DNA of 64,000 bases from Minisyncoccota bacterium. Its GTDB lineage: Bacteria; Patescibacteriota; Minisyncoccia; Phycocordibacterales; UBA5272. The notes under the pieces are model-generated. The model saw only the letters and a program-made list of their open reading frames with translations. It did no database searches and was not told the origin of the DNA. This document shows, one piece after another, positions 45,811-60,612 of this stretch (the first letter of the stretch is position 1; every line of letters begins with the position of its first letter). Location: positions 1,674 to 65,673 of the forward strand of contig JAGOQU010000005.1 of assembly GCA_018063165.1 (NCBI GenBank), given 5' to 3'. The translations under genes were made by a program, and so were the position numbers.

Positions 45811-46413
45811 TTAACTAGAGCTATCTTTTTTATAATGTATGGCAAATAGATAAAGAATACTCGATACTGTAATTATTATTGATAGTATTATATTTAAAAT
45901 AGATAGACCAAAATAACTAGAACTATATGTTTTTATTTCTAATACTGTTTTAGTTATTACGATTAATATTAATCCTAAAGGAAATACCCATGTATAAAGT
46001 ATCCATGTCCAGTTTGAGAATTTTGGATATCTATCTAAGTATCCGGCACCCTCTCTTTTAAAAATATCACCACCAATTTCTTTATCTATTAATGGCTCTA
46101 AGGAATGTATATAGCTATATTGGCGTTCAATTTGGATACAAATCTGAAAATACCTTATACTAATAATAGTAAGTAGACCCCATGTCAAACTAAGAAATCC
46201 AGAAAAGCTTATATTAAAACTAGATCCAAATTTATATTCTATCGCTTTACTGATGGCATTAATAGCTTGATCTGGAGAATAAAACTGTATACTAAATAGT
46301 GTTAAAATTAGAAGTATATAAATTATAAGTTTCTCTCTTTTATTTTCTAAATCCTTATTATTTAAACAAGTCTCCTTGTAATGATCGTAAAGTATTTCTA
46401 TTTCTTTTTTCAT
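45811..46413 (-). CDS. 4-TM membrane protein (candidate effector of the TIR operon)
   Basis: ~27-aa cytoplasmic N-terminus then four hydrophobic helices. Start codon 2 nt after the stop of the TIR-like gene. Confidence 0.5.
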   Translation of the reverse strand: MKKEIEILYDHYKETCLNNKDLENKREKLIIYILLILTLFSIQFYSPDQAINAISKAIEYKFGSSFNISFSGFLSLTWGLLTIISIRYFQICIQIERQYSYIHSLEPLIDKEIGGDIFKREGAGYLDRYPKFSNWTWILYTWVFPLGLILIVITKTVLEIKTYSSSYFGLSILNIILSIIITVSSILYLFAIHYKKDSSS

Positions 46414-46415
46414 GT

Positions 46416-46850
46416 TTAAAAAATAAAAGGCGCTTGATTTATTGCATTAATTATATTCTGATGGGTAAAGGAATTAGCTGTAGAGTATTTTGCACCAACA
46501 AGCGTTGTGGGTATTTGTGATAAAAAATTTATTTTAATTACCGCAATCCTCTTTTTATAAGACACAGCTTGATATGATTCAAAGTTAATCCAATTAACAT
46601 GACCTATTAAACTTCTATTTCTGTGCGGAGTGTTTGTATGCCCACCTGAAATAACTAGGACATGAGTAGACTCTTTTATCTTATTAGTTAGTGCTGCTTT
46701 TATTCTTCCTATATTGTTAGAATTTATTTCCTCTGAGGAGTAATCGTCAAATACTAAATCAAATTCCTTATTAGCATTCCAAGCTTCTAATAAAAACTTA
46801 TAATGCTTATCATGTTCGTAGTCAAAACTTACAAATATCTTTGGCTTCAT
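46416..46850 (-). CDS. TIR-like domain protein (ThsB/DUF1863-like)
   Basis: KIFVSFDYEHDKHYKFLLEAW...HVLVISGGHT...RSLIGHVNWINFESYQAVSYKKRIAVIKI parallels the ThsB pattern (FxSFxYxD...W...vLIg....R.WV.yEi.....IIgI.I). Confidence 0.55.
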   Translation of the reverse strand: MKPKIFVSFDYEHDKHYKFLLEAWNANKEFDLVFDDYSSEEINSNNIGRIKAALTNKIKESTHVLVISGGHTNTPHRNRSLIGHVNWINFESYQAVSYKKRIAVIKINFLSQIPTTLVGAKYSTANSFTHQNIINAINQAPFIF

Positions 46851-46853
46851 ATA

Positions 46854-47480
46854 TTACTTTAAATTAGGTTTTTTAATAACATCTACAACCTTTCCATTTA
46901 TGAGAAATTGATCATCCTCATGAATATAAATAGGGCTGTAAAATTTTGTAGACTCTGGCATTAAAAGTATTTGGTTATTATTTTTTCTGTCATCTACATA
47001 TTTTTTTATTGTCCCTCCTCCGTTTATAACAGCGAGAACAATTTCTCCATCTTTTGGATTAACTTGAGTTTTATCTACAAGTACAAAATCTCCATCTTCT
47101 ATTTTTTTATCAGTACCATACACAACTGCTTTGTTCATAGAATCTCCTTCAGCTCTTACTGCAAAAATATTTTTTACATTTTTTATTTTATGTAAAAAGC
47201 TTTTTGATACAACAACAAAACCTTCGTAATTTTGTTCTGCAAAAACAGAAGCATCTCCGCAATCAGCAGTACCAACTAATGGTATTTGGACAAACAGATC
47301 AGAAGGCTTACTTTTTTTATATACATCAAACCCTTTTTTCACTAATTGCTCTATATGGTGCTTAATTTTCTGTGGTGAGCTATTTTTTTCTCCTATTTTT
47401 TCAGCAATCTCCCTTAAGGTTAGTTTACTAAGGTCTGCAGACTTAGAAAGAGTTAAAATATCGTTTTGTATTTTGTGCAT
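46854..47480 (-). CDS. LexA/CI-like repressor (HTH + S24 peptidase)
   Basis: N-terminal wHTH (LTLREIAEKIG), C-terminal S24 with catalytic Ser in GDSM and Lys in TIKKY. 208 aa. Confidence 0.75.
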   Translation of the reverse strand: MHKIQNDILTLSKSADLSKLTLREIAEKIGEKNSSPQKIKHHIEQLVKKGFDVYKKSKPSDLFVQIPLVGTADCGDASVFAEQNYEGFVVVSKSFLHKIKNVKNIFAVRAEGDSMNKAVVYGTDKKIEDGDFVLVDKTQVNPKDGEIVLAVINGGGTIKKYVDDRKNNNQILLMPESTKFYSPIYIHEDDQFLINGKVVDVIKKPNLK

Positions 47481-47762
47481 ATGTGTAGATTATAGCAAAA
47501 ATATTATATTTTTGTCAATCTATTTTAGGTATTATATCTTAACAAAACTTAATTCTTGACAATGAAAATTCATTTTGTTAAAATAGAAGTAATGTACAGA
47601 AACTATTCTTACAGATTATTAAATAAACAAGCTTAAACTTATGGCAAAACAACGTGACTGGAAAAAAGAGCAACCTCATAAAGCAAATAATGGACAAATA
47701 GCTTCTAGAGAATATGCTAAAAAACATCCAGAAAAAGTTACTTGGGTTAAAGTAGACTAAAT

Positions 47763-48179
47763 ATGAAAACAGTAAATATCGCAATGGCTCATAAAGTAAT
47801 TCACCCACCTAAACATGGGGATATTATTTTACAAGTAACAGATATTCAAGCTCATACTAGTTTATTTAGAACATCCGACTTTGCAAAAACTGTTGAAAAA
47901 TCAACAAAAAAGAAAGAAGGAGGTAGGCTATTCTCTACTTTTAGTAGAGAAACTAATCAGATAATATCTGTTTTTGAAGATGGTGTTATAAAAAGCACAC
48001 TACCTTATTTAGATCAAACTCAACTGACTTCTCTAGTTAAAAAATACGAACAAGAAGGAAAAAGAGTTTATCTATCAATTCCTAATGGGTTAACTCTAAC
48101 ACCAGGAAAAGATGCTGTTGAATTCATGAACAGTAAAAATGGAAAAAGACTCGTAAGAGGGATGAATAAAAACAATTAA
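47763..48179 (+). CDS. hypothetical protein
   Basis: 138 aa. First of a co-directional series of small genes. Confidence 0.4.
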   Translation: MKTVNIAMAHKVIHPPKHGDIILQVTDIQAHTSLFRTSDFAKTVEKSTKKKEGGRLFSTFSRETNQIISVFEDGVIKSTLPYLDQTQLTSLVKKYEQEGKRVYLSIPNGLTLTPGKDAVEFMNSKNGKRLVRGMNKNN

Positions 48180-48333
48180 ATACTAATTACTCTGCGTAGT
48201 AAAAAGTAGAATAGTGTATCGCCTAAGAAACCATGCCTATTCCGCGCAAGAAACAGAAGGAACTTCGAATTCTCTTGTTTCGTGTGTGGAATAGGCTTTT
48301 TCTTATTCCACATATTAATTAAACAAAATTAAT

Positions 48334-49638
48334 ATGGCTAAAAAAATACAACAAAAACTAACATGGTCACTCACTACACGCAAAGTAAATGACCTCACAA
48401 AAAACGGATACAATCCGAGAAAGATAAGCGAGAATGAAAAAAGAGATTTAGAAAACTCTGTTAAAGAGTTTGGTACGGTTGTACCTGTAATTCTAAACAT
48501 CGGTAAAAGAAATAACATTATTATTGGTGGTGAGCAAAGAGTTAAAGTCTATGCTGACCTCGGTATAGAAAGTATTGAGTGCATGACTCCTTCTCGGGAA
48601 CTTACTCTTACAGAAGAAAAGGAATTAAATCTAAGGCTCAATAAAAATACTGGATCTTGGGATGAAAACCTCTTGAAAGATTTTGATATAGACATGCTTT
48701 TAGATGTTGGTTTTGGAGATGAGGAATTACAAAGCATGTTTGATGATGTAAACATGATCGAAGATGATTATGATATAGAAAAAGCAGTAAAAGAAACTAT
48801 TACTCCCAAAGTAAAACTTGGCGAGATTTGGGAACTTGGAAAACATAGGCTACTCGTGGGAGATTCAACTGATCTTGCTTCTGTACAAAAACTAATGGAT
48901 GGGAATTTAGCAGATATCATTTACTGTGACCCGCCATATAATATTGGACTCGACTACTCTAAGGGTGTGGGAAATACAGAAAAGTATGGAGGGTCATATT
49001 CTGCAAAAGATGATTCAAAGACCAAAAAAGAATATGAAGCTTTCATAGATACAAGTATGGAAGTAGCCAAGTCTATTGCTAAAAAAGATAGCCACTTTTT
49101 CTATTGGGGAGATTCTTCATTTATTGGAATGCTCCAATCTCTCTACCTAAAACATAAAGTAGATAGTAAAAGGGTTTGCATGTGGATTAAGAATAATCAA
49201 AACCCAACTCATAAAATTGCATTCAACAAAGTCTATGAGCCTTGTGTATATGGCACTCTTGGTAAACCCTATCTTAATTCTTCGATGAATAACACCAATG
49301 AAATACTTAATCAAGAAGTAACTACCGGCAATCAAGTTCATGATGAAATACTCGACATGATAGATATATGGATTGAAAAAAGAGACAGTGCTCAAACTTA
49401 TCAACATCCGACACAGAAGCCAGTTACTCTAAACGAAAAGCCATTCAAGAGATGCAGTGCTCCACTTCATGTTATTTATAGTGGTTTTGGTGGTAGTGGT
49501 TCTGATCTCATTGCCTGCGAGCAACTAAATAGAGTTTGGCGTGGGGTCGAAAAAGATTTGGTATTTGCTACCGTGATTATAGATAGATGGGAAAAGTTTA
49601 CAGGACTTAAAGCAATGAGAATATATGAAAGTAAATAA
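48334..49638 (+). CDS. ParB-like nuclease domain fused to DNA methyltransferase (N6-adenine/N4-cytosine, DPPY type)
   Basis: N-terminal ParBc-like segment (KISENEKRDLENSVKEFGTVVPVILNIG...IIGGEQRV), then IIYCDPPYNIGLDY and C-terminal SGFGGSGSDLIACEQLNR AdoMet motif. Confidence 0.8.
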   Translation: MAKKIQQKLTWSLTTRKVNDLTKNGYNPRKISENEKRDLENSVKEFGTVVPVILNIGKRNNIIIGGEQRVKVYADLGIESIECMTPSRELTLTEEKELNLRLNKNTGSWDENLLKDFDIDMLLDVGFGDEELQSMFDDVNMIEDDYDIEKAVKETITPKVKLGEIWELGKHRLLVGDSTDLASVQKLMDGNLADIIYCDPPYNIGLDYSKGVGNTEKYGGSYSAKDDSKTKKEYEAFIDTSMEVAKSIAKKDSHFFYWGDSSFIGMLQSLYLKHKVDSKRVCMWIKNNQNPTHKIAFNKVYEPCVYGTLGKPYLNSSMNNTNEILNQEVTTGNQVHDEILDMIDIWIEKRDSAQTYQHPTQKPVTLNEKPFKRCSAPLHVIYSGFGGSGSDLIACEQLNRVWRGVEKDLVFATVIIDRWEKFTGLKAMRIYESK

Positions 49639-50377
49639 AGGAGATATATTCACAATTGGTAATCACACTGTGGGGTGTGGCGACTCTACGGATAGAGAGT
49701 TTGTCAGTAAAGTTATTGGGAAAAATAAGATACGAGCAATAGTTACAGACCCTCCATATGGTGTTGCGTATGTAGAAAATAAAAAAGACTTTTTAAAACT
49801 TGGAGTGAAAGATGAAAAGAAAATTGCAGGAGATCATATACAATCGGACTCTGAATATACTGACTTTACTCAAAAGTATTTAGGAGCAGTGGTTCCGTAT
49901 CTAGAGGATTATAATGCTTGCTATATATTCAATGCTGACCTCATGTATCCGTCACTTAGAGTTGGTATGACTAACAGGGGATTCTATTATAGTCAGATGC
50001 TCATTTGGGTTAAAAATCAACCAGTCATGAGTCGTAAAGATTATTTATCTCAATATGAACTCATTGCATATGGATGGTTTGGAAAGCATAAAACAGAAAG
50101 GTCTAAGTCAAAGAACGTCATATACCACCCAAGACCAAATAAATCTAAACTGCATCCAACTCAAAAACCGATAGGTTTACTTCGTAGACTTATCCCAGAC
50201 AATACTGTTATTGGTGACATGGTCTATGATCCATTTCTAGGAAGTGGTTCAACCGCTATTGCTTGTGAACACTTAGGTCGAAAATGTATTGGTATAGAGC
50301 TCGACGTTAAGTATGTAGAAATAATACTACAAAGACTTGAAAAGCTTACTGGCGAAAAAGCCATAAAGAGTAATTAA
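49625..50377 (+). CDS. DNA methyltransferase (orphan, DPPY type)
   Basis: IVTDPPYGVAYV, HPTQKPIGLLRRLI, DPFLGSGSTAIACEHLGRKCIGIELD. Confidence 0.8.
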   Translation: MKVNKGDIFTIGNHTVGCGDSTDREFVSKVIGKNKIRAIVTDPPYGVAYVENKKDFLKLGVKDEKKIAGDHIQSDSEYTDFTQKYLGAVVPYLEDYNACYIFNADLMYPSLRVGMTNRGFYYSQMLIWVKNQPVMSRKDYLSQYELIAYGWFGKHKTERSKSKNVIYHPRPNKSKLHPTQKPIGLLRRLIPDNTVIGDMVYDPFLGSGSTAIACEHLGRKCIGIELDVKYVEIILQRLEKLTGEKAIKSN

Positions 50378-50381
50378 AAAT

Positions 50382-50756
50382 ATGAAGGAAGAAGAATTCA
50401 TAAAAGATCCATACAAGAAACAAACATATGAAAGCTATGCTCTTTGGAAGTCCCTTCCTTCATTTTTAAAGGGTCAACCAAGAGTAAGTCTTGAAAAGTT
50501 TGGTATCAACGAAGAAATAATCTTTGATTTACTTGCAATCAAAACTCAAGCTGAGTTTTCTAAAACATACAGCATTGATGTTGGTACGCTCACGGACTGG
50601 AATAAGAGGTTGGAAAAGGATGGGCTCAGTAAAGACATCAATGCGTGGGCAAGAAAGCTAACTCCTAATGTCATTTTTGCACTGTACAAAAACATTACTA
50701 AAAATGGTCGTGCTCACGAGGTGCGAGCTTGGTATGAATTAATTGAAAACAACTAA
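50382..50756 (+). CDS. hypothetical protein
   Basis: 124 aa. Confidence 0.4.
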   Translation: MKEEEFIKDPYKKQTYESYALWKSLPSFLKGQPRVSLEKFGINEEIIFDLLAIKTQAEFSKTYSIDVGTLTDWNKRLEKDGLSKDINAWARKLTPNVIFALYKNITKNGRAHEVRAWYELIENN

Positions 50757-50952
50757 TATGAAAGATATTAACTTAGAAGAAATAAATACAATACTATCTG
50801 ACACGTTAAGAAAAGTAGTAGATAGAGATATCTCACATAAGCAAGCGACGATGATTGCAAAACTAGCCTCTACACTTTCTAAAAATATAGTGAGTGTAGA
50901 ACTAAAAGACAGAGTCGAATTACTAGAACAAACTCTCAAAAGAAGAAAATAA
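50743..50952 (+). CDS. hypothetical small protein
   Basis: 69 aa, overlaps the neighbour by 14 nt. Confidence 0.3.
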   Translation: MKTTNMKDINLEEINTILSDTLRKVVDRDISHKQATMIAKLASTLSKNIVSVELKDRVELLEQTLKRRK

Positions 50953-50955
50953 TAT

Positions 50956-51948
50956 ATGCAAAAATTATCAAACATTTTAGGGTCTGGAAACATGACCCCA
51001 AAAGAAAGAATACTGGCTCAAGTCAAGCATTATCTACACCTTGAAAGAACAGGAGCAGAAATACTCTCTGAGTCTGATATTTATGCTTTGAGTCAAGGAT
51101 GGAAGCCAAAAACTCAAGCTGAGGTTAATGAATACAATAAATATCTAGATGGCATGAAGACGGAAAATTTAATGAAGGTAGATATACAGTTTGAGTATCT
51201 ACAAGCTCAGTTAAAGTTAGCCAGAGTATCACGCGTCCTTGATTATGCTATGTTTAGTGGGTATAAAAACATCAAAGCTCATGATATTTTATTGTCCGAC
51301 GGTTTGGTTTCAGAAGAAGAGATAACAGACTTTTTGCTAGAAAATAGTGGTTTCAACTATGACAGTATTGTAGTAGAATACCCTAAATTTAAAAGCGAAC
51401 TAGATACTCTTATAAAACAAAATAAACTCATCATCTACACTTTTGAAGACCAAATCCTAGACATGAAGCGAACGGTAAGTTTAATTACTGGAGAAAGTAT
51501 AATGTCTCTACCTCACACACACATTCTTAAGACTGAGTACAAGAAACAGTTGGAATACTATAAATATTTTGCTAATGTTTTTCTGTTTATACAAAAGTCG
51601 CAGTTATTTAAAATTTATGGCGAGATACTAGCACTGCAAGATATATATAAAGTTCTGCTTGAACTTTATGACGCAGATATAGGCTATTATCTATCTGACT
51701 TATTGAGTGAATTAGATGAATCAATACACCAGCTAAATATGGAAGTGGTGTATTTCTTATCTAGAATGGAGGATGAGCTTTATGATAAACATAAGCCCAA
51801 ATTCTTTTTAGATATTCAGATAAGAAAAGTCCTATTTGAAAAACCAATCAGAGAATATACTGGAAATATTTATAGAAAATACATTGAGCAATTTAGAGAG
51901 CTTTTTGATTATGAGTTTAGAGAAAAAAGCAATACTTTATTGCATTAG
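50956..51948 (+). CDS. hypothetical protein
   Basis: 330 aa, no family recognised. Confidence 0.4.
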   Translation: MQKLSNILGSGNMTPKERILAQVKHYLHLERTGAEILSESDIYALSQGWKPKTQAEVNEYNKYLDGMKTENLMKVDIQFEYLQAQLKLARVSRVLDYAMFSGYKNIKAHDILLSDGLVSEEEITDFLLENSGFNYDSIVVEYPKFKSELDTLIKQNKLIIYTFEDQILDMKRTVSLITGESIMSLPHTHILKTEYKKQLEYYKYFANVFLFIQKSQLFKIYGEILALQDIYKVLLELYDADIGYYLSDLLSELDESIHQLNMEVVYFLSRMEDELYDKHKPKFFLDIQIRKVLFEKPIREYTGNIYRKYIEQFRELFDYEFREKSNTLLH

Positions 51949-52067
51949 AAGGACTAATGTAGCCCCCAAAGTATTGACTTAATATACAAAGTATGCTATG
52001 ATGTATTAAGCTGTAAACTACAGCTACTGACCAAGCAGATTCTTGGTGTTCTTTTAAAAAGGAAAAG

Positions 52068-52925
52068 ATGATGACTGAAAAGATCACGTCGAATCAACGT
52101 AAACAAATCGTTCGATTCGTGGAGGATGGCATTGATGCCGTGAACCTTCAAAAAGACGGCGCACAGCGCCTTATCGAAAACGGAGGAGAATTCCAAAGCG
52201 AGCTGAAAAAGCTTGTTGAACGTTTCTCCATTACCAACCAGTACGCGGACGAAGAAGTGAAATCCAGCTACGGCTACCTGTCGGGCTACACGCCCAAGGG
52301 TATCACCGAGCAGACCAACTTACTCCGCGCCCTGTTCCCTGGTATCGGCTACGCCAACGAAAAGCTTGCCGAAGCTGGTCTGCCCGAAAACGCCGAAGGA
52401 TGGTTCGCCATTCCGCGGTGGGAAAAGGTTGCCCCGACTTATGGCGAAGCGGTGCAGAAGGTGCTCGATCTGATCAAGCAAACCAGAAACGGTGCGTTCT
52501 ACAACTACCGTGAAGGTCAACTTGGTCCGAACCAGCTCCGTCAGTCCGCGAAAGCAAAGTCAATGTTCCAAATGCTCGGTGGCGAGCAAAAAGATCAGGA
52601 CATTCTGGTGGTACCTGCCCAATTCGGTATCCGTCATCGCGGTCGCTCGGTTCGCCGTGCCCGCGCGCTAATGAACGCAAACGAATGCGGTCTGGGTGCA
52701 TTTGCCATCGGCATCATGCTCCTGACTCATCCTGAGCGTCTTCAGCACTTTGATGATCTCTGGATTGACTCCGCTGGTGACGAGTTTGCTCCGCATGCCG
52801 ATGGTGACTTCTCGAGGTCTCCGTACTTCAGGTTCTTTGACGACGAGGTCGAGTTCGACACCAACGATGTTTTCATTGCTTACGCCTACTATGGTTCGGC
52901 TTCGGTGTGTCTTCCGCAAGGTTGA
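52068..52925 (+). CDS. DGR target protein (variable region at C-terminus)
   Basis: 285-aa ORF, markedly GC-rich versus flanks. Last ~45 codons form the VR matching the downstream TR with adenine-specific mismatches. Confidence 0.7.
   Translation: MMTEKITSNQRKQIVRFVEDGIDAVNLQKDGAQRLIENGGEFQSELKKLVERFSITNQYADEEVKSSYGYLSGYTPKGITEQTNLLRALFPGIGYANEKLAEAGLPENAEGWFAIPRWEKVAPTYGEAVQKVLDLIKQTRNGAFYNYREGQLGPNQLRQSAKAKSMFQMLGGEQKDQDILVVPAQFGIRHRGRSVRRARALMNANECGLGAFAIGIMLLTHPERLQHFDDLWIDSAGDEFAPHADGDFSRSPYFRFFDDEVEFDTNDVFIAYAYYGSASVCLPQG
52784..52921 (+). repeat. DGR variable repeat (VR)
   Basis: Aligned by hand to 53289-53426 at a constant offset of 505 bp. Confidence 0.7.
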
Positions 52926-52984
52926 TACTTGTTCTTTGGGATCTTGAGTCTTTTGATTTTTTGATCCTTGAATCCTTGAGTGGG

Positions 52985-53012
52985 TTTGCGAAAGCAAACC
53001 CACTTTTTTTAT
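52985..53012 (+). terminator. terminator after DGR target gene
   Basis: gtgggtttgc-gaaa-gcaaacccac followed by tttttttatt. Confidence 0.7.
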
Positions 53013-53288
53013 TTGCCGAAGGCAATTTTTGTATTTTTATGGTAAAATAAGTTTGAGTCTAGGTTAGTGTATAGTAGTTTACGGATTACTATCACCGAAC
53101 TCTTTCTCCTATGAGAAATCACAATCAGCATCACAAAGACCAAGGTTTCTGTGACAGTGTTGTTGCTCTAGAGATACTGCTTACTATTTTCTAAGACAAA
53201 CAAGTAATTGTGTTGTTGGATTAAATACAGAATCGTGATTTATGTGCAATATCATACTTCGTGGTTTGTGGTCTGGATGGAAAATAGT

Positions 53289-53426
53289 AAAAGCTCCGAA
53301 TGCCGATGGTGACTTCTCGAAGTCTCCGTACTTCAAGTTCAATGACGACAAGGTCAAGTTCGACACCAACGATGTTGACAATGCTAACGACAACTATGGT
53401 TCGGCTTCGGTGTGTCTTCCGAAGTA
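53289..53426 (+). repeat. DGR template repeat (TR)
   Basis: Non-coding copy of the VR. 13 of 14 mismatches are A in this copy versus C/G/T in the VR. Followed by hairpin ggtatcc-atatcg-gatacc at 53440-53468. Confidence 0.7.
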
Positions 53427-53472
53427 TCAATTAAGCACAAAAGGTATCCATATCGGATACCTTTTGCTTTAT

Positions 53473-53817
53473 TTACTTTTGGAACTTTATCCACCCACCA
53501 AGCATACGACCAATTTCATCAATGATTCCTTGGAGAAGTGTGTACTTCTTTAGATCGAGACTTCTACTTTCTTTCATAAGACGAATAAAAAACCTTATGA
53601 TATTAAGTTTTACACTCGTCTTTTCTAGAAGAATTATTTTTCTTTCTTTTGAAACATAACTTGCTTCAAGAACTAATTCAAGGATATCTATAATTATATT
53701 TTCTGTACGCTCGTAAACAGAGAATCTGTCTTGTTTTGGAACCAGATTTCTGTACTCATGAAATGTTTTGTACAACTCATGAATCTTACGAAGTATTGGC
53801 ACATCATTATCATTCAT
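53473..53817 (-). CDS. avd: Avd-like accessory variability determinant (four-helix-bundle family)
   Basis: 114-aa helical ORF ending IDEIGRMLGGWIKFQK. Lies between TR and RT. Opposite strand to the RT is atypical. Confidence 0.5.
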   Translation of the reverse strand: MNDNDVPILRKIHELYKTFHEYRNLVPKQDRFSVYERTENIIIDILELVLEASYVSKERKIILLEKTSVKLNIIRFFIRLMKESRSLDLKKYTLLQGIIDEIGRMLGGWIKFQK

Positions 53818-54873
53818 ATGAGAATATATACTAATTTATTTAATAAACTTGTTACTCCAGAAAACCTATTTTCTGCATGGGAGGATTTTCGACGTGATAA
53901 AAAAAAGAAAGTAGATGTACTTATTTTTGAGAAAAATCTCGAGCAAGAAATATTCTCTATTCACAGAGAATTGACTTCTGACACTTACAAGCACAGTGGC
54001 TATACTTCTTTTTATCTTTCAGATCCGAAACGTCGACATATACACAAAGCCTTAGTTCGTGACCGAGTACTTCATCATGCGATTATGGGTATTTTGTATC
54101 CTTTGTACGACAAAACCTTTATTCATAATTCTTTTTCTTGTCGTGTTGGGAAAGGAACTCATAAAGGTGTTGATGCACTACGATCCATGCTTTACAAAGC
54201 AAGTAAAAATAATACAAGAAATGTGTATATTTTAAAGTGCGATATAGAGAAGTTTTTTGATTCTATTTCTCACGAGATCTTGCTTGACGCTCTTCACTCA
54301 CGAATCAAAGATCAAAAACTTATGGACTTACTCACTGAAGTAATCGGAAGCTTTTCGAGTTATAAGTCTAATCTTTTCGGATTGTGCGGTGTACCTATTG
54401 GTAATTTAACCTCTCAATTATTCGCTAATGTTTACATGGATATTTTTGATCAGTTCATGAAACATGAACTTAAAGTAAAATATTATGCACGGTATACCGA
54501 TGATTTTGTAATAGTTAGTGAGAATAAAGAATATCTAATAGACTTATTACCCAAAATACAATTGTTTTTAAATGAGAAGTTAAAGTTACAGACACATCCC
54601 AAGAAAATTATCCTAACAAAGTTCGCACTAGGCATTGATTATCTTGGATATGTTTTGTTCCCACACTTCACTTTAGTTCGTAAACTCACTCAAAAATGTG
54701 CTTTTAGAAAAATAAACGAAAAGATATCTTTGTGCAAGCAACAAGAGATTTCAAAAGATAAAGTACATGCAACCTTAATGTCTTATCTTGGTGTTTTATC
54801 TCATGCAGATACTTATAAAGTATCTAATAAATTAAAGAATGATTATTTCTTTAATATGAGTAACATTGACTAA
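53818..54873 (+). CDS. DGR reverse transcriptase
   Basis: Start inferred at MRIYTNLFNKLVTPENLFSAWEDF. RT motifs include GVPIGNLTSQLFANVYM (DGR-type [I/L]GxxxSQ) and YARYTDDFVIV (YxDD). No maturase/endonuclease domain. Confidence 0.8.
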   Translation: MRIYTNLFNKLVTPENLFSAWEDFRRDKKKKVDVLIFEKNLEQEIFSIHRELTSDTYKHSGYTSFYLSDPKRRHIHKALVRDRVLHHAIMGILYPLYDKTFIHNSFSCRVGKGTHKGVDALRSMLYKASKNNTRNVYILKCDIEKFFDSISHEILLDALHSRIKDQKLMDLLTEVIGSFSSYKSNLFGLCGVPIGNLTSQLFANVYMDIFDQFMKHELKVKYYARYTDDFVIVSENKEYLIDLLPKIQLFLNEKLKLQTHPKKIILTKFALGIDYLGYVLFPHFTLVRKLTQKCAFRKINEKISLCKQQEISKDKVHATLMSYLGVLSHADTYKVSNKLKNDYFFNMSNID

Positions 54874-54893
54874 AAAAGTTCGACCGGGCTTCT

Positions 54894-57239
54894 TTAGTCA
54901 TTCATGTTTTCAAGACTTTTCCCAAGCGATTCTAATTTCTCTATATCTTTTATTAGATGCCACTCACCAGTTTTAAATATAACAACTCCACCAAATAGTT
55001 TCTGTGCTTTTCGTGTTTTATTTTCTTTCTTTACATATTCTTGCAAGGCTTCATTTTTTGCTTTTGTATACGTATCTTTATCTCTGTCGTTCTCATCTTT
55101 TGTTTCAAAAATACCAATTCTTCCATCAGAAAGCTCAACAATATAGTCAGGATAGAAAGTGTGTACTTCTGATTGATATTCGTATCTGATACCAAAATAG
55201 TCCCTCCTCATTTCACCATTTTTATACCACCAATTTACAGCAATAAGTAATTCAAGATACTTTTCAAACTCTTGCTCTGGTTTAGATCTAGTTTTTGAAA
55301 GATAGCAAGGTTGTAAAACACATTTTGCATAGTTTTTTTCTTCGTCTACTTCTTTATTAAAGTAGTCTTTTTCTATTATTTCAAAACCTGTAATAACATG
55401 TTCGGTCTCTTCTTTTGCTTTCTTTGCACGAACCAAGGAGTATGTCTGTACTGCATCTAAAAAGATAGGTTTAATTTTATCTTTATTTAAAATGAGAAAT
55501 GCTTGAGAGCTAAGTGTTCCATTATTTATTATCTCATCACCAAAGAGTTCACGGCATACTAAAAACCAAGCAGTATTCATAGACGGTACCGAACGAGCGA
55601 TGTTAGTAAATGGAGCCATCATACTTTTAAAGAGACTGCGTGAAATAAATTCAATCTGGCGCTCATTTATTTTAAGAGACTGCACATCGCCGTCATCGTC
55701 TTCGAAAACATTTTTATAATTGTCTACCTCTGTAACATCAAGAGACAGATCCTTTATAACTGTATGTAGTATCTCTTCAGTACCAAATTGCCATCCTAAA
55801 TCAGATGTAGTTGTAGGTTTTACTTTTTTGAGTTTACTTATATTATTTTTATACTCACCCTGAACAAGACCAAGTTTAGTAGATATGGTTTCTAACAAAA
55901 CTTTCCGAAAGTCAGCTTTAATATCTTGGTAATCGGCACGTTCTCTATAAAAAGATGTTAAGTTTATCGGGTTATACGACGGCAGTCTCTTTGCAGGCTG
56001 ATCACCCAGTATCTTTGGGCTGTAACTTTCAATGTCAAAACTCGCACTACTTGTATTGGTGTATACATAAGCTTTATTAAGAGCTTCTACTTCATAGTGT
56101 TTTTGCTCAGGCATACGAAGTATTCTTCCTAATACTTGTATATTAAATACTTCACTTTCACTTTCTCTAAATTTAAGTAGTATCTGTGCACGAGGGCAAT
56201 CCCAGCCAGTATCAATTGCTTGTTTAAAAAGTAAGTATTCTTGTGGGGCGGTATTGTCGGATATTTTATCCAAATTCCTATCTATTTTATTTTCATCGTC
56301 TAACCATACTGACAACTTGTCATCACCCAAAGAGACACCTCTAGTATTTTTAAGTTGTTCTAAAACAACAGACTTTACCACTTCACCATTTGCGCTGTTG
56401 GGTAGCTGTATAAGAAGTAAAGGATTTACATCTATATTATTTTCTTTATACAGCCTAGCGAGTTCATCTCTTTTATTGATTGCAGTACGAAGTATCGCTT
56501 CGTCACTATCGTCTGTATCTTTAAAATCAAAATCAAAGTTAACGAGAATTTGATCTTTTATCATTTGTTCGTCAATAACATCTTGAGGTTTAATTTTTTC
56601 TATCCAACCATTACCTGCAATTACATCTTCTGCTGACAAAATCAATTTCGGAGTTGCTGATACCTCTATCGTGACAGTCGGATTTATGAGATGAATTATA
56701 TCTTCGGCAATCTTTGTCTTTGTATTGCTGTGAGCTTCGTCAATAATGAGAATTATTTTTCTATGAATACTGGTGGTGTTTAAAAGTATTTCCCTAAAGT
56801 TAGTTTGTTCACCATCTTTCATAATAATGTTTTTCCACTCCTGTGTCTTACCATCTTTCGAACGTATCTTTTCCCAGTTTACAACCATAACTGAGTCTTT
56901 TAAAAGTTCATATTGTGAAGTACCAAAAACACCATCTACACTTTGAACTATAGGGAATCCATCAAATACTCTTTCAAGACTTCTCCTGCTTTGATTGTGT
57001 AGATCTCCTTTACCGATAGAGAGCCATACAAAAGTAAAATCAAGAGAGCTTTCACTTTCTTTATTTTTGTTTATCAGTGACTCTATAAAACTTGCCACCA
57101 TAATAGTCTTACCTGATCCAGTAGGAGCTTGGAGAACAGCGGTCTTTTTGTGGTCATTATTACTGTCTAAAAAGAGTGACACTTTTTCAGTAAGCGTATC
57201 GACAGCTTTTTGTTGATAGTCTTTTAAAATTATTTTCAT
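54894..57239 (-). CDS. res: type III restriction enzyme Res subunit
   Basis: SF2 helicase motifs VLQAPTGSGKTIM (I) and LIIDEAHS (II). Follows a Mod gene. Start inferred at MKIILKDYQQ. Confidence 0.8.
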   Translation of the reverse strand: MKIILKDYQQKAVDTLTEKVSLFLDSNNDHKKTAVLQAPTGSGKTIMVASFIESLINKNKESESSLDFTFVWLSIGKGDLHNQSRRSLERVFDGFPIVQSVDGVFGTSQYELLKDSVMVVNWEKIRSKDGKTQEWKNIIMKDGEQTNFREILLNTTSIHRKIILIIDEAHSNTKTKIAEDIIHLINPTVTIEVSATPKLILSAEDVIAGNGWIEKIKPQDVIDEQMIKDQILVNFDFDFKDTDDSDEAILRTAINKRDELARLYKENNIDVNPLLLIQLPNSANGEVVKSVVLEQLKNTRGVSLGDDKLSVWLDDENKIDRNLDKISDNTAPQEYLLFKQAIDTGWDCPRAQILLKFRESESEVFNIQVLGRILRMPEQKHYEVEALNKAYVYTNTSSASFDIESYSPKILGDQPAKRLPSYNPINLTSFYRERADYQDIKADFRKVLLETISTKLGLVQGEYKNNISKLKKVKPTTTSDLGWQFGTEEILHTVIKDLSLDVTEVDNYKNVFEDDDGDVQSLKINERQIEFISRSLFKSMMAPFTNIARSVPSMNTAWFLVCRELFGDEIINNGTLSSQAFLILNKDKIKPIFLDAVQTYSLVRAKKAKEETEHVITGFEIIEKDYFNKEVDEEKNYAKCVLQPCYLSKTRSKPEQEFEKYLELLIAVNWWYKNGEMRRDYFGIRYEYQSEVHTFYPDYIVELSDGRIGIFETKDENDRDKDTYTKAKNEALQEYVKKENKTRKAQKLFGGVVIFKTGEWHLIKDIEKLESLGKSLENMND

Positions 57240-57249
57240 AGTGTTTTTG

Positions 57250-58986
57250 TTATCTGCGATTATTTCGCTTATAAATAGTTTCGTATATTTCAAGTATTTT
57301 TTCTGGTACTTCTTCGATATGTATTCCTTTCCATTTACGATAGTCATCTATAAAATCAGAGACACTTCGAAGAGAGAAAATATAGGCAGTCTTGTGTGAA
57401 TCTTCATATTGTTTTAACTCACTTCGCATATCTTCGAGATAACTATCATCAAGATCATAATACACACCCATATAATGTTTTACGGTAGTACTGTCGCCCT
57501 CTTGAGATATAACCTTTATTCCGCTATAAATACGATACATGAGAGTGTCGCCATCTTTTACTTCTTTTTCTAGATTAAAAGTATTCTCCTTAAGACAAAG
57601 CATTTCACTACAGGCTCGCATGAGTCTCATTTTCATATTGTCACTATGGCGAGTCTTGTCTATGTATTCGCATTTTAAATACTCCAAATTACCACCAAAA
57701 CCCTCGATGTTTTCTCCTTTTTTGTTTGTGTAGCCTTTAATCACTCTCTTGAGTCTTTCATAGGTTACTTCTTCACAAATATTATTCTCATTATTAGTAC
57801 AGAGAATATATTGGCGATTACCGCCATCCTCTTTATTTAATTCCATAACAGCATGGCCAGTTGTACCAGAGCCTGCCATGAAGTCTAAGACTACGGAGTT
57901 TTTATCTTGATGAAAATCTACTAAGTCTTTAATTAACAAGTATGGCTTTGAGTAATTAAAAACTTTTGATTTAAAAATATTTTCGAGTTGCTTGGTAGCC
58001 ATTGTACTGGAATAACTTGATATGACAGCTATTGGAGTTTTTGAACGTTCTATCAAATTTCCCTCATTATCACAGTTAAAATATTGCTTGGTATATACAT
58101 TACCATTCTTAAAAACTATAAAATCATTTTCTAATCCCCATAAAAATTTATTTTCAGACCACCTCCAACACCCCTTCTTCCCATCTTCTGAAGGCATTTT
58201 AGTTTCTCCATTTGGCAGAATGATTGGATAGTCAAGGCTTTTAGAATACTGAATACTAAAACTATTCAACTTAATCAACTTGTATCTTCCTCGTATTTCT
58301 AAATAGTTGTCTTCAAAAGTATAACCATTATCATTTTCTATTTTTAAATTTTTTATAACAACTAAATCTTTTTTCAAACCATAAACCAAAATGTATTCAT
58401 GTTTAATCTTGAAATGTGCACTATCAGATCCGCCACCTCCTTCTTTATTTTCCCATATTAAATTTGCTATAAAATTATGTTCCCCGAGTATTGAGTCACA
58501 CAAAAGTTTTAATTGTGCCTGCTCATTATCATCAATAGATATAAAAATTGCACCACTATCTTTTAGTAGGTCTTTTGCAAGTCTTAGTCTCTTCTCTATA
58601 AAAGACAACCACTTAGAATGTCTAAAGCTATCCTCTCTATCTACATAATCATCATTATATATAAAGTCTTTATTCCCAGTATTGTATGGCGGATCAATAT
58701 AGATGACATCAATCTTACCCTTATGGGTATAATTCAAAACAGAAAGAGCGTGATAATTGTCTCCCTCAATCAATAAGTTCGTTGGGCGAGTATTATCTGT
58801 AACGATTTTTCTATTTTTAATTTCTTTAAGCACTGGAATTTGCTTTTCACATTGAAGTACCACATCCTCTGGTTTATCTTCCCAGACGAGTCCATATTTT
58901 TTACGAGACTTGAGTTTTTTCATTTCTTCCTCAAGTTCTTTGATGCGAGCAAAAAGCTCTTGTTGTGAGTTTGTGTTTGATGACAT
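57250..58986 (-). CDS. mod: type III R-M Mod subunit (N6-adenine DNA methyltransferase)
   Basis: LIEGDNYHALSVL, IDVIYIDPPYNTG, C-terminal FMAGSGTTGHAV. Confidence 0.85.
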   Translation of the reverse strand: MSSNTNSQQELFARIKELEEEMKKLKSRKKYGLVWEDKPEDVVLQCEKQIPVLKEIKNRKIVTDNTRPTNLLIEGDNYHALSVLNYTHKGKIDVIYIDPPYNTGNKDFIYNDDYVDREDSFRHSKWLSFIEKRLRLAKDLLKDSGAIFISIDDNEQAQLKLLCDSILGEHNFIANLIWENKEGGGGSDSAHFKIKHEYILVYGLKKDLVVIKNLKIENDNGYTFEDNYLEIRGRYKLIKLNSFSIQYSKSLDYPIILPNGETKMPSEDGKKGCWRWSENKFLWGLENDFIVFKNGNVYTKQYFNCDNEGNLIERSKTPIAVISSYSSTMATKQLENIFKSKVFNYSKPYLLIKDLVDFHQDKNSVVLDFMAGSGTTGHAVMELNKEDGGNRQYILCTNNENNICEEVTYERLKRVIKGYTNKKGENIEGFGGNLEYLKCEYIDKTRHSDNMKMRLMRACSEMLCLKENTFNLEKEVKDGDTLMYRIYSGIKVISQEGDSTTVKHYMGVYYDLDDSYLEDMRSELKQYEDSHKTAYIFSLRSVSDFIDDYRKWKGIHIEEVPEKILEIYETIYKRNNRR

Positions 58987-59283
58987 AGGGTAGACGTCTA
59001 TGCCTCAGCTTAAAACCAAAAATGGGTAGCCGAGTGTCTACCCATAACTAGAGTCGCAAGGAGTCCAATCATGGAACTCAGCTACCCGTTTCTGTCCACG
59101 ATTGGATACAGAAAAACAGATAGCCTTGCGACTTTTTAAAAACTAATTATGGGTAGACTGTTACATAATAGCATAAAAACGGCTTTTTATGAAGGGTTTA
59201 GGGACTACTTATCAACTTATAAGGACAAAAGAACGCCTAGACTTCCTATGTGGTTTGCGTCATTAATGTGTATATAAAAACAT
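58987..59283. promoter_or_regulatory. cluster of inverted/direct repeats upstream of the serine recombinase gene (candidate recombination site)
   Basis: gggtagac / gtctaccc motifs at about 58989, 59024-59046, 59080, 59150. Inverted repeat gagtcgcaagg...ccttgcgactt at about 59050 and 59120. Confidence 0.35.
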
Positions 59284-60612
59284 ATGAAAATAGATGCACC
59301 AAAAGGATATGAAGTACCTATAACACTTCAAACAAAAGAAGTTAAAGCAAGATATTGTTTGTATGCAAGAAAATCAACAGAGTCAGAAGAAAGACAAGTA
59401 CTTTCAATTGATTCGCAAATTAAAGAAATGCTCGAGCTTGCAGAAAGAGAAGGTCTTGAAATAGTTGCTATGAAGCGAGAGTCCCACTCAGCAAAAGAAC
59501 AAGGACAGCGTCCTGTATTTAATGAAATAGTCGATGAAATCAAAGCTAAGAAATATAATGCAATACTCACATGGGCACCAGATCGTATTAGTAGAAATGC
59601 GGGAGATCTCGGAAAGATAGTAGACCTCATGGATGCGGGACTGCTTCATGAAATACGCACCTATGGGCAAAAGTTTTCAAACAACCCTAATGAGAAGTTC
59701 TTGCTGATGATACTGGGCTCACAAGCAAAGCTAGAAAATGATAACAGAGGTGTGAATGTGAAGCGTGGACTTCGCACAAGAGCTGAGATGGGACTATGGG
59801 CAGGTACAGCACCACTCGGATATTTAAATCAAAGACATATGGATAGAAAGTGCCAAGTAGTCATAGATCCTGATAGAGCTCCTGTAGTAAAGAAAATGTT
59901 TGAGAAAGTAGCATACGAAAAATGGTCGGGAAGAAAGGTGTACAATTGGCTTCGTTTTGAAGCCAATTTTTATACGAGAGGCAATAAGCCTCTTACACTA
60001 AGCGGTGTCTACAGAGTGCTCACTCACAGCTTTTATTATGGAGTTTTTGAAAGACCTAAAAATAGCGGCAACTGGTATCAAGGTAAACATGAGCCGATTA
60101 TAACAAAAGAGTTATTTGATCAAGTACAAGCACAACTGAAGCGAGATAATATACAGAGAGAAAATAAAGAATTTGCTTTCACTAAACTATTTACTTGTGG
60201 ATATTGTGGTAGCGGTATATCGGCAGAAGAAAAGTGGAAAGATTTAAAAGATGGTACACATGCAAAATACATATACTACTCCTGTAGTAGGGCGAGGGAT
60301 AGAAACTGTAAGAATAAATATATTAGAGAAGAAGAATTGATTGGGGAACTACTCAAAATGCTAGACAAGGTAGATATTAACGAGCTTGGCATGAGACAAA
60401 AGCTCGAGGAAGAAATAGCAAGATTTAATATATTCCAAAGATCAGTGTTACAAACGACAGTAAAGTCAGACAAAGATCATGTCACTGATATTCGTAACTA
60501 TGCGAAGTATATTCTTAAGGAAGGTACAGTGATGGAAAAGCGTGAGTTACTTGCTAATTTAAGGAGCAGGATTGTGTATAAGGATAAGGAGTTAAAATTA
60601 AACAATTGCTAA
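59284..60612 (+). CDS. large serine recombinase
   Basis: N-terminal resolvase domain with catalytic Ser in YARKSTESEERQVLSIDSQ, recombinase domain, C-terminal zinc ribbon CGYCGSGISAEE...YYSCS. 442 aa. Confidence 0.9.
   Translation: MKIDAPKGYEVPITLQTKEVKARYCLYARKSTESEERQVLSIDSQIKEMLELAEREGLEIVAMKRESHSAKEQGQRPVFNEIVDEIKAKKYNAILTWAPDRISRNAGDLGKIVDLMDAGLLHEIRTYGQKFSNNPNEKFLLMILGSQAKLENDNRGVNVKRGLRTRAEMGLWAGTAPLGYLNQRHMDRKCQVVIDPDRAPVVKKMFEKVAYEKWSGRKVYNWLRFEANFYTRGNKPLTLSGVYRVLTHSFYYGVFERPKNSGNWYQGKHEPIITKELFDQVQAQLKRDNIQRENKEFAFTKLFTCGYCGSGISAEEKWKDLKDGTHAKYIYYSCSRARDRNCKNKYIREEELIGELLKMLDKVDINELGMRQKLEEEIARFNIFQRSVLQTTVKSDKDHVTDIRNYAKYILKEGTVMEKRELLANLRSRIVYKDKELKLNNC

Follow-up and report, generated by a model that had tools for sequence, protein, structure and literature searches.

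The window analysed here, a 64,000-nt stretch of DNA from a Candidatus Pacebacteria / Paceibacterota genome, contains a sequence that occurs once at the end of an open reading frame and again between that frame and a reverse transcriptase (RT) gene. The question raised by this locus is whether these elements form an intact diversity-generating retroelement (DGR) and, if so, of which type, whether it belongs to a phage or to the cell, and how the RNA carrying its template is organised. We regard the locus as an intact DGR of the CPR type ("B3", TR-(avd)-RT), with a probability of about 0.9. A preliminary description had already interpreted the locus as a DGR, and this is supported by the adenine-specific mismatches, the RT, the Avd protein, the lectin-like model of the target and the variation in relatives only at TR-adenine columns.

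DGRs with an inverted avd gene have been catalogued in CPR bacteria since 2017, and CPR DGRs are reportedly also the subject of the 2017 paper of Paul et al. in Nat Microbiol. The B3 architecture, TR-(avd)-RT with avd inverted, makes up 90% of CPR DGRs (Wu et al. 2018, PMC5758913), and the CPR DGRs belong to the cellular "DGR clade 2" (Roux et al. 2021, PMC8144416). Since the gene layout of the locus corresponds to the published B3 architecture, the element belongs to an already known CPR DGR type. The avd gene does lie on the opposite strand, as the preliminary description had stated, and this is no oddity. Recognition of the DGR is a confirmation and not a discovery. What the comparison of loci adds is a covariation-supported secondary-structure model of the whole TR transcript for the commonest CPR DGR architecture. 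The features of the locus are listed in Table 1.

Table 1. Coordinates of the features of the DGR locus in the window
Feature	Position	Strand	Description and basis
Candidate promoter of target gene	51974-52002	+	sigma-70-like, TTGACT-17-TATGAT with TG; 10/12 match, consensus only
Target (variable protein) gene	52068-52925	+	ORF, 285 aa; 284 aa from second ATG at 52071
VR	52788-52916	+	last 43 codons but three of target; repeat alignment, A-mismatch statistics, relatives
IMH-like VR end	52893-52919	+	adenine-free GC-rich 24-mer, identical in TR, then CAA (VR) vs AAG (TR)
Five YTTGA repeats	52943-52979	+	spacing 7-9 nt, directly past target stop codon; motif count
GC-rich hairpin	52978-53005	+	GAAA loop and T-run, 3' of target gene; fold of sequence
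Second small hairpin	53013-53025	+	3' of the GC-rich hairpin
Candidate promoter of TR RNA	53040-53048	+	extended -10-like box TGGTAAAAT; sequence and relatives
Structured RNA leader	53055-53292	+	conserved, 5' of TR, helices P1-P5; covariation among relatives
Helix P1	53062-64/53094-96 plus 53072-79/53084-91	+	covariation model
Helix P2	53122-25/53159-62 plus 53131-40/53145-54	+	covariation model
Helix P3	53181-92/53279-90	+	encloses P4 and P5
Helix P4	53196-202/53209-16	+	inside P3
Helix P5	53230-38/53258-66	+	inside P3
Leader strand of long-range duplex	53155-53179	+	invariant core GAGATACUGC; pairs with 53422-53440
TR	53293-53421	+	31 adenines in 21 codons; repeat alignment, relatives
TR 3' flank (IMH*-side), second duplex strand	53422-53440	+	duplex-energy test, relatives
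Stem-loop between TR and avd stop codon	53438-53466	+	terminator-like both ways; all 7 pairs covary
avd (accessory variability determinant)	53473-53817	-	114 aa; Pfam and NCBIfam profiles
DGR RT	53818-54873	+	351 aa; RVT_1 E=2e-24; best PDB relative 8ub7

Template and variable repeats

The preliminary description had reported that approximately 130 bp of the target end recur 505 bp downstream. An ungapped comparison at this offset and a repeat search identified a direct repeat of 129 bp with 90% identity, composed of the variable repeat (VR) in the target gene and the template repeat (TR) outside it. In the repeat search the pair ranks as the strongest repeat within the surrounding 24 kb. The distance between the VR end and the target stop codon is 9 nt.

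The two repeats differ at 13 positions, 12 of which fall on TR adenines (hypergeometric P=6e-8). Tabulation by TR base, which had been recommended as a check, shows that the mismatches are A-specific: 19 of the 31 TR adenines are the same in the VR, while six are replaced by T, four by G and two by C. All 31 occupy codon position 1 or 2. Canonical AAY-rich TRs avoid mutation to stop codons; four AAG codons of the present TR are mutable to TAG stops. The sole non-A mismatch in the repeat, TR G53377 / VR T52872, is the g-to-t difference noticed before. The preliminary count of 14 mismatches, 13 of them at A, also included the pair TR A53422 / VR C52917. This difference is real, but it is a boundary difference, with A vs C fixed in the related loci inspected. 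Its fixation among relatives indicates that it marks the end of homology and is an IMH/IMH*-type difference, not a result of random A-mutagenesis.

Both repeats end in the same GC-rich 24-mer (GGTTCGGCTTCGGTGTGTCTTCCG), as had been observed, and this sequence contains zero adenines. It is followed by CAA or CAG in the VR and by AAG in the TR, again without exception in the related loci inspected. By analogy with BPP-1, the model for assigning the IMH role (Wu et al. 2018, PMC5758913), the region of the 24-mer may act as the IMH.

Reverse transcriptase and Avd

The RT gene encodes a protein with the motifs GVPIGNLTSQLFANVYM and YTDD. In RTs of the DGR clade, motif 4 reads [I/L]GxxxSQ instead of QGxxxSP. 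The best solved relative is the RT of BPP-1 (bRT, 8ub7; E=1.6e-39, 139 bits, over residues 4-339), in which IGSLTSQLFANVY is aligned with IGNLTSQLFANVY of the present protein, so that IGNLTSQ stands opposite IGSLTSQ. The next PDB matches are group II and retron-type RTs at ~1e-17 (best group II 9e-18) with <=68 bits. The sequence thus points to an RT of the DGR type, in agreement with the earlier account of an RT of ~350 aa with YTDD and the DGR hallmark motif. The start codons of the RT and avd genes adjoin (CATATG), and the two genes are arranged head-to-head. The ORF that had been called Avd-like passed the cut-offs of both profiles in the HMM search that had been proposed, namely Pfam bAvd PF22296 (E=7.6e-17) and the NCBIfam equivalog NF033474 DivGenRetAVD (81.5 bits vs cut-off 80).

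An ordinary partial gene duplication beside an unrelated RT, belonging to a retron, a group II intron or a defence system, would leave the A bias to chance. This reading could draw on sub-threshold NCBIfam matches of the RT to group II, Drt3a and retron models. However, no NCBIfam RT family was matched at its cut-off (group II 134.7 vs 300, retron 58 vs 235), the RT is far nearer to bRT, and an Avd equivalog is present. A search of Rfam over 52700-54100 at E<=1 returned no credible family, the five matches listed being all far below the gathering scores, and no match to the RT-10 motif or to group II intron and retron RNAs. The RT scores and the Rfam result led us to reject a retron or a group II intron. 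The A bias is moreover repeated in ~35 independent loci. Together with the RT similarity and the column match between VR and TR described below, this effectively refutes a chance duplication, to which we assign a negligible probability.

TR-to-VR copying in related loci

The comparison drew on two sets of loci: ~35 from genomes, each with a complete cassette, and 45 from metagenomes, in which the leader is present. The metagenome loci were selected from a 16-mer scan of metagenomes, in which 75 of 120 contigs were chance matches and only the 45 with an nhmmer match to the leader were kept. In all complete related loci the TR and the RT are on the plus strand and avd is on the minus strand. In ~35 related Patescibacteria loci nearly all of the TR/VR mismatches are located at TR adenines. 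Pooling of ~40 related loci gave 677 mismatches at TR-A and 77 at other positions, most of the latter from paralog pairs. In many loci the mismatches are 100% at A (20/20, 23/23, 26/26).

Six close relatives of the locus vary at 30 of the 31 A columns of the VR. Seven non-A columns of the VR are also variable, and these are exactly the columns at which the TRs differ, each VR matching its own TR. Since each VR carries the private non-A changes of its own TR, sequence has been copied from TR to VR in this lineage. Divergence among relatives is 3-5% in the TR vs 11-13% in the non-VR part of the gene. In one pair of loci (L007 and L009) the scaffold diverges by 1.8%, the TR by 0% and the VR by 16.3%, and a sister protein cluster has near-identical scaffolds that differ in the VR only. 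About half of the fetched target loci have no nearby DGR; the VR-equivalent of these loci is still A-depleted.

Target gene and genomic neighbourhood

The product of the target gene is 100% identical to MBP9867089.1, annotated at NCBI as "hypothetical protein" of a Ca. Pacebacteria MAG. It consists of a conserved scaffold of ~240 aa and a C-terminal variable region. Homologs of this protein (2227, in 171 species-representative genomes) are variable only in the last ~45 aa. The comparison brings these proteins together as a single target family, very large and highly conserved, in tiny, host-dependent bacteria. The protein was described as having no recognisable signal peptide or known domain. 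In line with this, it has no match in Pfam, NCBIfam, PHROG or a profile search of PDB sequences, and neither a signal peptide nor a membrane segment was detected. The N-terminal 100 residues form a helical region without a match. Structure prediction, which had been suggested for the C-terminus, models residues 101-285 (the last 185) as a C-type-lectin-like / FGE-like fold. With modest confidence, the C-terminal part of the target may thus be C-type-lectin-like.

The GC3 of the target gene is 0.60 vs 0.22 +/- 0.07 in the other ORFs of the window. It was anomalously high in all 74 loci tested, with a family-wide excess of ~0.3. Adenine avoidance on the sense strand was rejected as the cause because A exceeds T in the non-VR part of the gene and because C3 and G3 are both raised. 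Amino-acid composition was rejected because GC3 itself differs (0.60 vs 0.22).

Within the 64-kb window no other 60-nt stretch is as dense in the YTTGA motif as the repeat tract past the target stop codon (background 0.21 per 60 nt). Three or more copies are found in 59 of 79 related loci, loci without a nearby DGR included. A hairpin at the position of the GC-rich hairpin, often carrying TTATCCACA, is present in nearly all relatives. We interpret the hairpin of the window as a terminator; by analogy it is also a possible counterpart of the inverted repeat that follows the IMH in BPP-1. The YTTGA tract together with the hairpin, or the GC3 excess, may play a role in target recognition or in expression control.

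The preliminary description placed the cassette inside a phage-like island, a view that is only partly supported. The neighbourhood does contain genes for a large serine recombinase, an S24 repressor-like protein, methyltransferases and defence functions, including a ParB-methyltransferase with strong PHROG matches, and a tRNA-Ser lies nearby. The same cassette, accompanied by the recombinase, is also present on two IMG/VR contigs. These observations would suit a phage-borne, BPP-1-like DGR that switches tropism, with the target as the receptor-binding protein of a prophage in the island. What the island lacks is phage structural genes among the neighbours compared: the target and eight neighbouring proteins matched no phage structural or other PHROG family, except for the methyltransferase and an ABC-type ATPase. 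Nothing convincing emerged when the surroundings of the island were searched for att-like direct repeats. The family has only two matches among 2.9 million viral contigs, vs 171 species genomes, and in other genomes the same cassette lies between housekeeping genes such as those for LeuRS and TsaD. The target is small (285 aa) and has no tail-fibre features, and the CPR DGRs fall in a cellular clade in published surveys (Roux et al. 2021, PMC8144416). A phage-borne element is therefore considered very unlikely, and we regard the DGR as cellular.

Structured RNA around the template

The template copy had been described as lying outside any credible gene. The spacer 5' of it (~53055-53292) is not featureless but encodes a conserved structured RNA of five helices. 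Covariation was counted over 56 pairs, 49 in the leader and seven in the stem-loop that follows the TR. Compensatory changes were found in 45 of the 56, and 95.9% of cells pair across them, vs 37-52% when the partners are slid. The MFE of the RNA corresponds to z=-4.4. An nhmmer profile of the leader matches all 35 complete DGR loci and gives a single match in the window (53057-53296, E=6e-40). Upstream of the leader, relatives carry TGATATAAT, TGCTATACT or TATAAT at equal distance 5' of a conserved GAGnnTAGG; the corresponding box of the window may serve as the promoter of the TR RNA.

The leader also pairs with the sequence immediately downstream of the TR. GATACT (53173-78) of the window is paired with AGTATC (53423-28), and the strands of this long-range duplex covary in relatives, for example TAGCGAGGAG/CTCCTCGCTA and TCTTGGGG/CCCCAAGA. 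Because purine/pyrimidine tracts pair in several registers, column-wise covariation of the duplex is ambiguous, and a permutation test of the energies was used instead. Cognate strands pair with a mean of -15.1 kcal/mol vs -13.1 for non-cognate ones (p=5e-5). The end of helix P3 lies 0-7 nt 5' of the TR in 27 of 27 loci. The hairpin noted previously after the template copy was recovered as the covarying stem-loop. Of 278 DGRs, 207 have their predicted Avd-binding element in a stem-loop immediately downstream of the TR (Handa et al. 2024), and the present stem-loop is by analogy a candidate Avd-binding site. No description of the structured leader, the YTTGA tract, the post-VR hairpin or the GC3 excess was found in the literature searched, outside of which lies the main 2017 CPR-DGR paper.

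The state of these elements bears on whether the DGR has recently been silenced or is decaying, in which case the TR/VR differences would be relics of earlier activity and the target would no longer be diversified. Such decay occurs in the family: locus L012 retains the leader and the TR, but neither avd nor an RT lies within 5 kb, and eight of its 26 mismatches are non-A. For the window itself, the one non-A mismatch and the identical VR in MBP6948753.1, the one further assembly in which this protein occurs, would agree with decay, although the two identical assemblies may represent the same population. On the other hand, none of the target, avd and RT ORFs is disrupted, and all three are under purifying selection (dN/dS 0.03-0.1). 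The leader helices, the TR, the IMH-like end and the stem-loop are likewise intact and fit the family consensus. No TR adenine has been lost, and the 19 that the VR shares with the TR are still unmutated there. Decay is thus unlikely, if less so than a phage origin, and an intact DGR remains the preferred reading.

Proposed mechanism

We propose that a non-coding RNA of ~415 nt is transcribed from the plus strand, from ~53055 to ~53470, comprising the structured leader, the 129-nt TR and the terminal stem-loop. The RT together with Avd would reverse-transcribe the TR and misincorporate opposite its 31 template adenines. The cDNA would then replace the homologous VR at the 3' end of the target gene. 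In this way 21 codons could be recoded, giving up to ~1e18 protein variants on the putative C-type-lectin-like C-terminal domain, while the 240-residue scaffold would stay constant.

The roles of the RNA elements are modelled on the structure of the Bordetella phage RNP. The duplex of the leader and the 3' flank may place the TR 3' end for cis-priming, helix P3 may halt cDNA synthesis at the 5' TR boundary, and the post-TR stem-loop may bind Avd. The leader would supply the RNA that envelops the RT, which in BPP-1 is located 3' of the TR (Sp). As a tentative generalisation, held at slightly less than even odds, the widespread CPR (B3) DGR lineage would use a topologically permuted RNA. In it a five-helix 5' domain of ~240 nt would provide RT/Avd binding, priming and stop, functions that the 3' Sp RNA supplies in the Bordetella phage, and the TR would be clamped between P3 and the covarying long-range duplex. 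Against the preferred explanation as a whole stand the single non-A mismatch, the identical VR of the second assembly, the AAG codons mutable to TAG and an RNA topology unlike that of BPP-1. The model offers DGR biochemists a concrete 415-nt RNA for reconstitution with RT and Avd, and the system is a natural test of the priming and stop logic seen in BPP-1 cryo-EM under a different RNA topology.

Comparison with known DGRs

The locus shares with the BPP-1 DGR (mtd-avd-TR-brt; PDB 8ub7; Handa et al. 2018, 2024) an Avd protein and an RT with the IGxLTSQLFANVY motif, as well as an adenine-specific transfer from TR to VR into a C-terminus of C-type-lectin fold, the fold of the present target being a putative one. 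Further similarities are the A-free GC-rich IMH-like end, a hairpin downstream of the target, a stem-loop directly 3' of the TR and the mutual pairing of the sequences that flank the TR up- and downstream. The two systems differ in gene order and in the strand of avd. The large structured RNA is located on the 5' side of the TR here (~240 nt) but on its 3' side in BPP-1 (the 140-nt Sp); in the window the avd stop codon lies only ~50 nt past the TR. The Rfam RT-10 motif, found between TR and brt in BPP-1, has no match here. The hairpin stands ~60 nt past the VR with the repeat tract between, compared to 4 nt in BPP-1, and the target is not a tail-fibre protein.

In comparison with the variable proteins of Treponema denticola (TvpA), Thermus (TaqVP) and the Legionella LdtA type, the target has no detectable sequence similarity and no lipoprotein or secretion signal, and its N-terminal 100 residues are helical and unmatched. 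The closest agreement is with the B3 DGRs of CPR bacteria. They share with the present element the host group, the inverted avd between TR and RT, and a cellular rather than phage location. In both, the VR is situated at the C-terminus of a small target without a recognisable domain, signal peptide or membrane segment, and the element does not differ in kind from these DGRs.

Repeat pair, reverse transcriptase and Avd

The region 51800-55200 was read and its ORFs were listed. An ungapped comparison at an offset of 505 showed that the homology between the variable repeat (VR) of the target gene and the template repeat (TR) runs from 52788/53293 to 52916/53421, over 129 bp. An independent repeat search returned the same pair as the top direct repeat of 40000-64000, with 90% identity. 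The two copies differ at 13 positions, and at 12 of these TR carries A, one of its 31 adenines (hypergeometric P=6e-8); in VR the changed adenines are replaced by T (6), G (4) or C (2). In the frame common to TR and the target gene, all 31 TR adenines occupy codon positions 1 or 2. The final 24 nt are identical in both copies and contain no adenine. The computational realignment thus bears out both the adenine-specific mismatches and the shared terminal 24-mer of the preliminary description. Its count of 14 mismatches stands for 13 of them; the fourteenth, A53422 on the TR side and C52917 on the gene side, shows the same A/C difference between template and gene across the related loci inspected and is therefore the fixed end of the homology, not a mutagenised site. 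The sole non-A difference, TR G53377 against VR T52872, shares its codon (GAC to TTC) with a mutated adenine next to it. Four TR codons (53320-53322, 53335-53337, 53350-53352 and 53356-53358) are AAG instead of the usual AAY, so that adenine mutagenesis is able to make in-frame TAG stops in VR. A search of the window for a second VR found none.

The opposite-strand ORF described as Avd-like is recognised by both the Pfam and the NCBIfam Avd models (table). The best solved relative of the RT is bRT, the RT of the Bordetella phage BPP-1 DGR, whereas the best group II and retron-type RTs reach only about 1e-17 in the same solved-structure search. The IGNLTSQ-type motif noticed earlier, IGNLTSQLFANVY, aligns on IGSLTSQLFANVY of bRT, and the protein falls below the cut-off of every NCBIfam RT family (group II, retron, Drt). 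The start codons of avd and RT abut head-to-head (CATATG, 53815-53820). This implies that each promoter lies inside the coding sequence of the other gene, or that RT is made from a TR transcript that reads through antisense to avd.

Features of the cassette and its surroundings (window positions)
Feature	Position	Strand	Remarks
ThsB-TIR-like gene	46416-46850	-	
S24 LexA/CI-like (repressor-like) gene	46854-47480	-	
ParB-N6/N4 methyltransferase	48334-49638		
Second methyltransferase	49625-50377		
Target gene	52068-52925	+	285 aa
VR	52788-52916		In target gene
Five YTTGA motifs	52943-52979		After stop codon; 7-9-nt spacing; the motif is nowhere denser in the 64-kb window
GC-rich hairpin and T-run	52978-53005		After YTTGA tract
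Putative extended -10-like box TGGTAAAAT	53040-53048	+	Precedes leader; comparable boxes in relatives
Leader, predicted helices P1-P5	about 53055-53292	+	Alignment structure mapped to the window
TR	53293-53421		
Covarying stem-loop	53438-53466		Between TR and avd stop codon
avd	53473-53817	-	Pfam bAvd, E=7.6e-17; NCBIfam DivGenRetAVD equivalog, 81.5 bits (cut-off 80)
RT	53818-54873	+	RVT_1 domain; best solved relative 8ub7 (Bordetella phage DGR RT), E=1.6e-39, residues 4-339
ResIII helicase	54894-57347	-	
Methyltransferase	57250-58986	-	With ResIII helicase
Large serine recombinase	59284-60612		
DUF3800 gene	60609-61418	-	
tRNA-Ser	61541-61630	-	

Mutagenic homing in related loci

A relative of the target is encoded in 171 species-representative genomes. 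Eighty loci were fetched from such genomes, together with several metagenome contigs. The TR(+)-avd(-)-RT(+) unit is intact in every RT-bearing locus, with the avd and RT starts about 0-20 bp apart, and the target is found on the leader side of the unit in either orientation. Of the TR/VR mismatches pooled over the loci, 677 fall at TR adenines and 77 at other bases. The latter come mainly from loci whose second copy is a paralogous target, and in many loci A-specificity reaches 100%. Two paralogous target genes are present in some genomes, in tandem or on separate contigs (Patescibacteria loci L034, L048, L055, L059 and L082; L074 and L084 of one MAG), and such paralogs differ at all four bases, not at A alone.

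Among six close relatives of the window cassette, VR varies at 30 of 31 adenine columns and at 7 of 98 non-A columns. These seven are exactly the columns at which the TRs differ, and each VR bears the base of its own TR there (e.g. GGT vs TCC). This match to private non-A bases is direct evidence of TR-to-VR copying after the lineages split. Between two relatives the difference is 1.8% for the scaffold, 0% for TR and 16.3% for VR; in a sister 90%-identity cluster the scaffolds are near-identical and the differences lie in VR alone. The one other assembly with the target protein of the window has the same VR. Locus L012 (JGI/TPA contig CAYJED010000004.1, 5998-6350) is probably a decaying cassette: leader and TR survive, neither avd nor RT lies within 5 kb, and non-A bases account for 8 of the 26 TR/VR mismatches.

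Adenine-specific TR/VR mismatches, an Avd equivalog, an RT nearest to bRT and homing seen across relatives support the identification of a DGR. We consider the element a real, intact CPR-type DGR that is or very recently was functional, with a probability of about 0.9.

In 37 of 85 loci (including L003, L024-L032, L037, L039 and L042-L047), leader, TR, avd and RT are all absent within 5 kb of the target. The adenine fraction of the VR-equivalent of these orphans is 0.124, as low as that of DGR-linked VRs (0.119), with 0.281 in TR and 0.23 in the rest of the gene. Orphan targets therefore appear to have been diversified, in trans or in the past, which suggests trans-acting or lost DGRs.

Structured RNA around the template repeat

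The preliminary description placed the downstream copy outside any credible gene. The spacer before TR is not empty, however. When 21-27 diverse loci are put in TR orientation and the 260 nt preceding TR are aligned, strongly conserved blocks emerge, and RNAalifold predicts 49 pairs, 38 with compensatory changes. Together with 7 pairs of the stem-loop after TR, a 56-pair structure was counted, on which 95.9% of the cells pair, compared with 37-52% when partners were slid by 1-3 columns. Sliding lowers the number of pairs with double changes from 45 to 17-23 and the covariation score from 0.63 to 0.15-0.19, and 0 of 500 shuffles reached the observed values. The 'spacer' is thus a structured RNA, supported by covariation. 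The hairpin reported after the template copy is also present, as a stem-loop that covaries in relatives. The window's own 425-nt stretch folds at z=-4.4.

An nhmmer profile of the leader matches 35 of 35 complete DGR loci and has a single match in the window (53057-53296, E=6e-40), and Rfam gave no credible family match to the leader region at E<=1. A metagenome search with a 16-mer from the most conserved leader block retrieved 45 further leader-bearing contigs. The same target family lies beside the leader in 37 of them, with identities down to 32%, the rest being mostly truncated, which shows that the leader, the target family and the RT/Avd lineage travel together.

Complementarity links an invariant block of the leader (consensus UUGAGGAGAUACUGC, 53155-53179) to the immediate 3' flank of TR (consensus AGUCUCUCCUCAA, 53422-53440), with covarying examples such as TAGCGAGGAG/CTCCTCGCTA and TCTTGGGG/CCCCAAGA. 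Since several duplex registers are possible, cognate and non-cognate leader/flank pairs were compared; the mean duplex energies are -15.1 and -13.1 kcal/mol, respectively (permutation p=5e-5). In each of 27 loci, the 12-bp P3 ends 0-7 nt (median 2) ahead of the start of TR/VR homology.

The target gene and its 3' region

A 'hypothetical protein' of a Candidatus Pacebacteria MAG matches the 285-aa product with 100% identity. The product has 2227 homologs, all from Patescibacteria-type sources and none of them named. Searches of Pfam, NCBIfam, PHROG and PDB sequences gave no match, in agreement with the earlier remark that the target has no known domain. Across the aligned homologs the scaffold of 240 residues is extremely conserved, HRGRSVRRAR and WIDCAGDEF being among its motifs, and variability falls mostly within the last ~45 residues.

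Nowhere else in the 64-kb window is there a GC-rich stretch like that of the target gene (about 55% vs 27-39% elsewhere). The gene has a GC of 0.53, and its GC3 is 0.60, compared with 0.22 +/- 0.07 for 44 other ORFs; avd and RT are host-like, at 0.27. The excess is sharp and confined to the target gene, the leader and all neighbours being host-like. All 74 related loci tested show it (mean GC3 0.74 vs 0.44; r=0.64 with the host), whether or not a DGR lies nearby, and almost no other ORF of ~750 kb of flanks does. Synonymous divergence of the scaffold is 0.45-0.54, compared with 0.64-0.78 for avd and 1.4-1.7 for RT, about 3-fold below RT. Possible explanations are selection on synonymous sites, high expression, and recombination or transfer of the target gene on its own.

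Of 79 related loci, 59 have at least three YTTGA copies after the target stop, and 23 carry TYATCCAC (TTATCCACA / TGTGGATAA; expected ~0.02 per 170 nt) in the stem of the post-gene hairpin. This DnaA-box-like word lies about 80-120 nt after the stop, for example in L004, L015, L030 and L042. The hairpin of the window lacks this word and has the stem GTGGGTTTGC-GAAA-GCAAACCCAC instead. These features also occur beside targets that lack TR, avd and RT within 5 kb. The tract and hairpin may be the counterpart of the BPP-1 post-IMH inverted repeat, or 3'-UTR elements.

Genomic setting

Within 45800-61700, a serine recombinase and an S24 repressor-like gene agree in part with the phage-like island proposed earlier; however, no phage structural family was matched among the neighbour proteins tested, and no att repeats were found around the island. 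The cassette occurs in only two IMG/VR contigs, both with the recombinase, and lies among housekeeping genes in other genomes. An integrative element is the probable nature of the island, which looks like an integrative defence island.

Comparison with known systems

In the BPP-1 RNP, Sp RNA located 3' of TR envelops the RT, Avd is bound by a stem-loop just after TR, and the stop element is a duplex of sequences up- and downstream of TR; other DGRs were examined in that study for 40 nt upstream of TR only (Handa et al. 2024). By analogy, the stem-loop after TR may bind Avd, the long-range duplex may position the TR 3' end for priming, and P3 would be a roadblock setting the 5' boundary. As avd begins ~50 nt after TR, the RT-binding RNA mass cannot be located 3' of TR, and the leader might provide it. 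BPP-1 differs from the cassette of the window in having its structured RNA 3' of TR, not 5'.

An avd inverted between TR and RT is the B3 architecture, TR-(avd)-RT, which makes up 90% of CPR DGRs, and most VRs and targets of CPR DGRs are unclassifiable (Wu et al. 2018, PMC5758913), and a CPR-restricted cellular DGR clade has targets without recognisable domains (Roux et al. 2021, PMC8144416). The fit with these published DGRs makes the element one of a known kind, in which an inverted Avd is expected. Its added interest lies in the covariation-supported RNA architecture around TR and in the unexplained properties of a very widespread target family.
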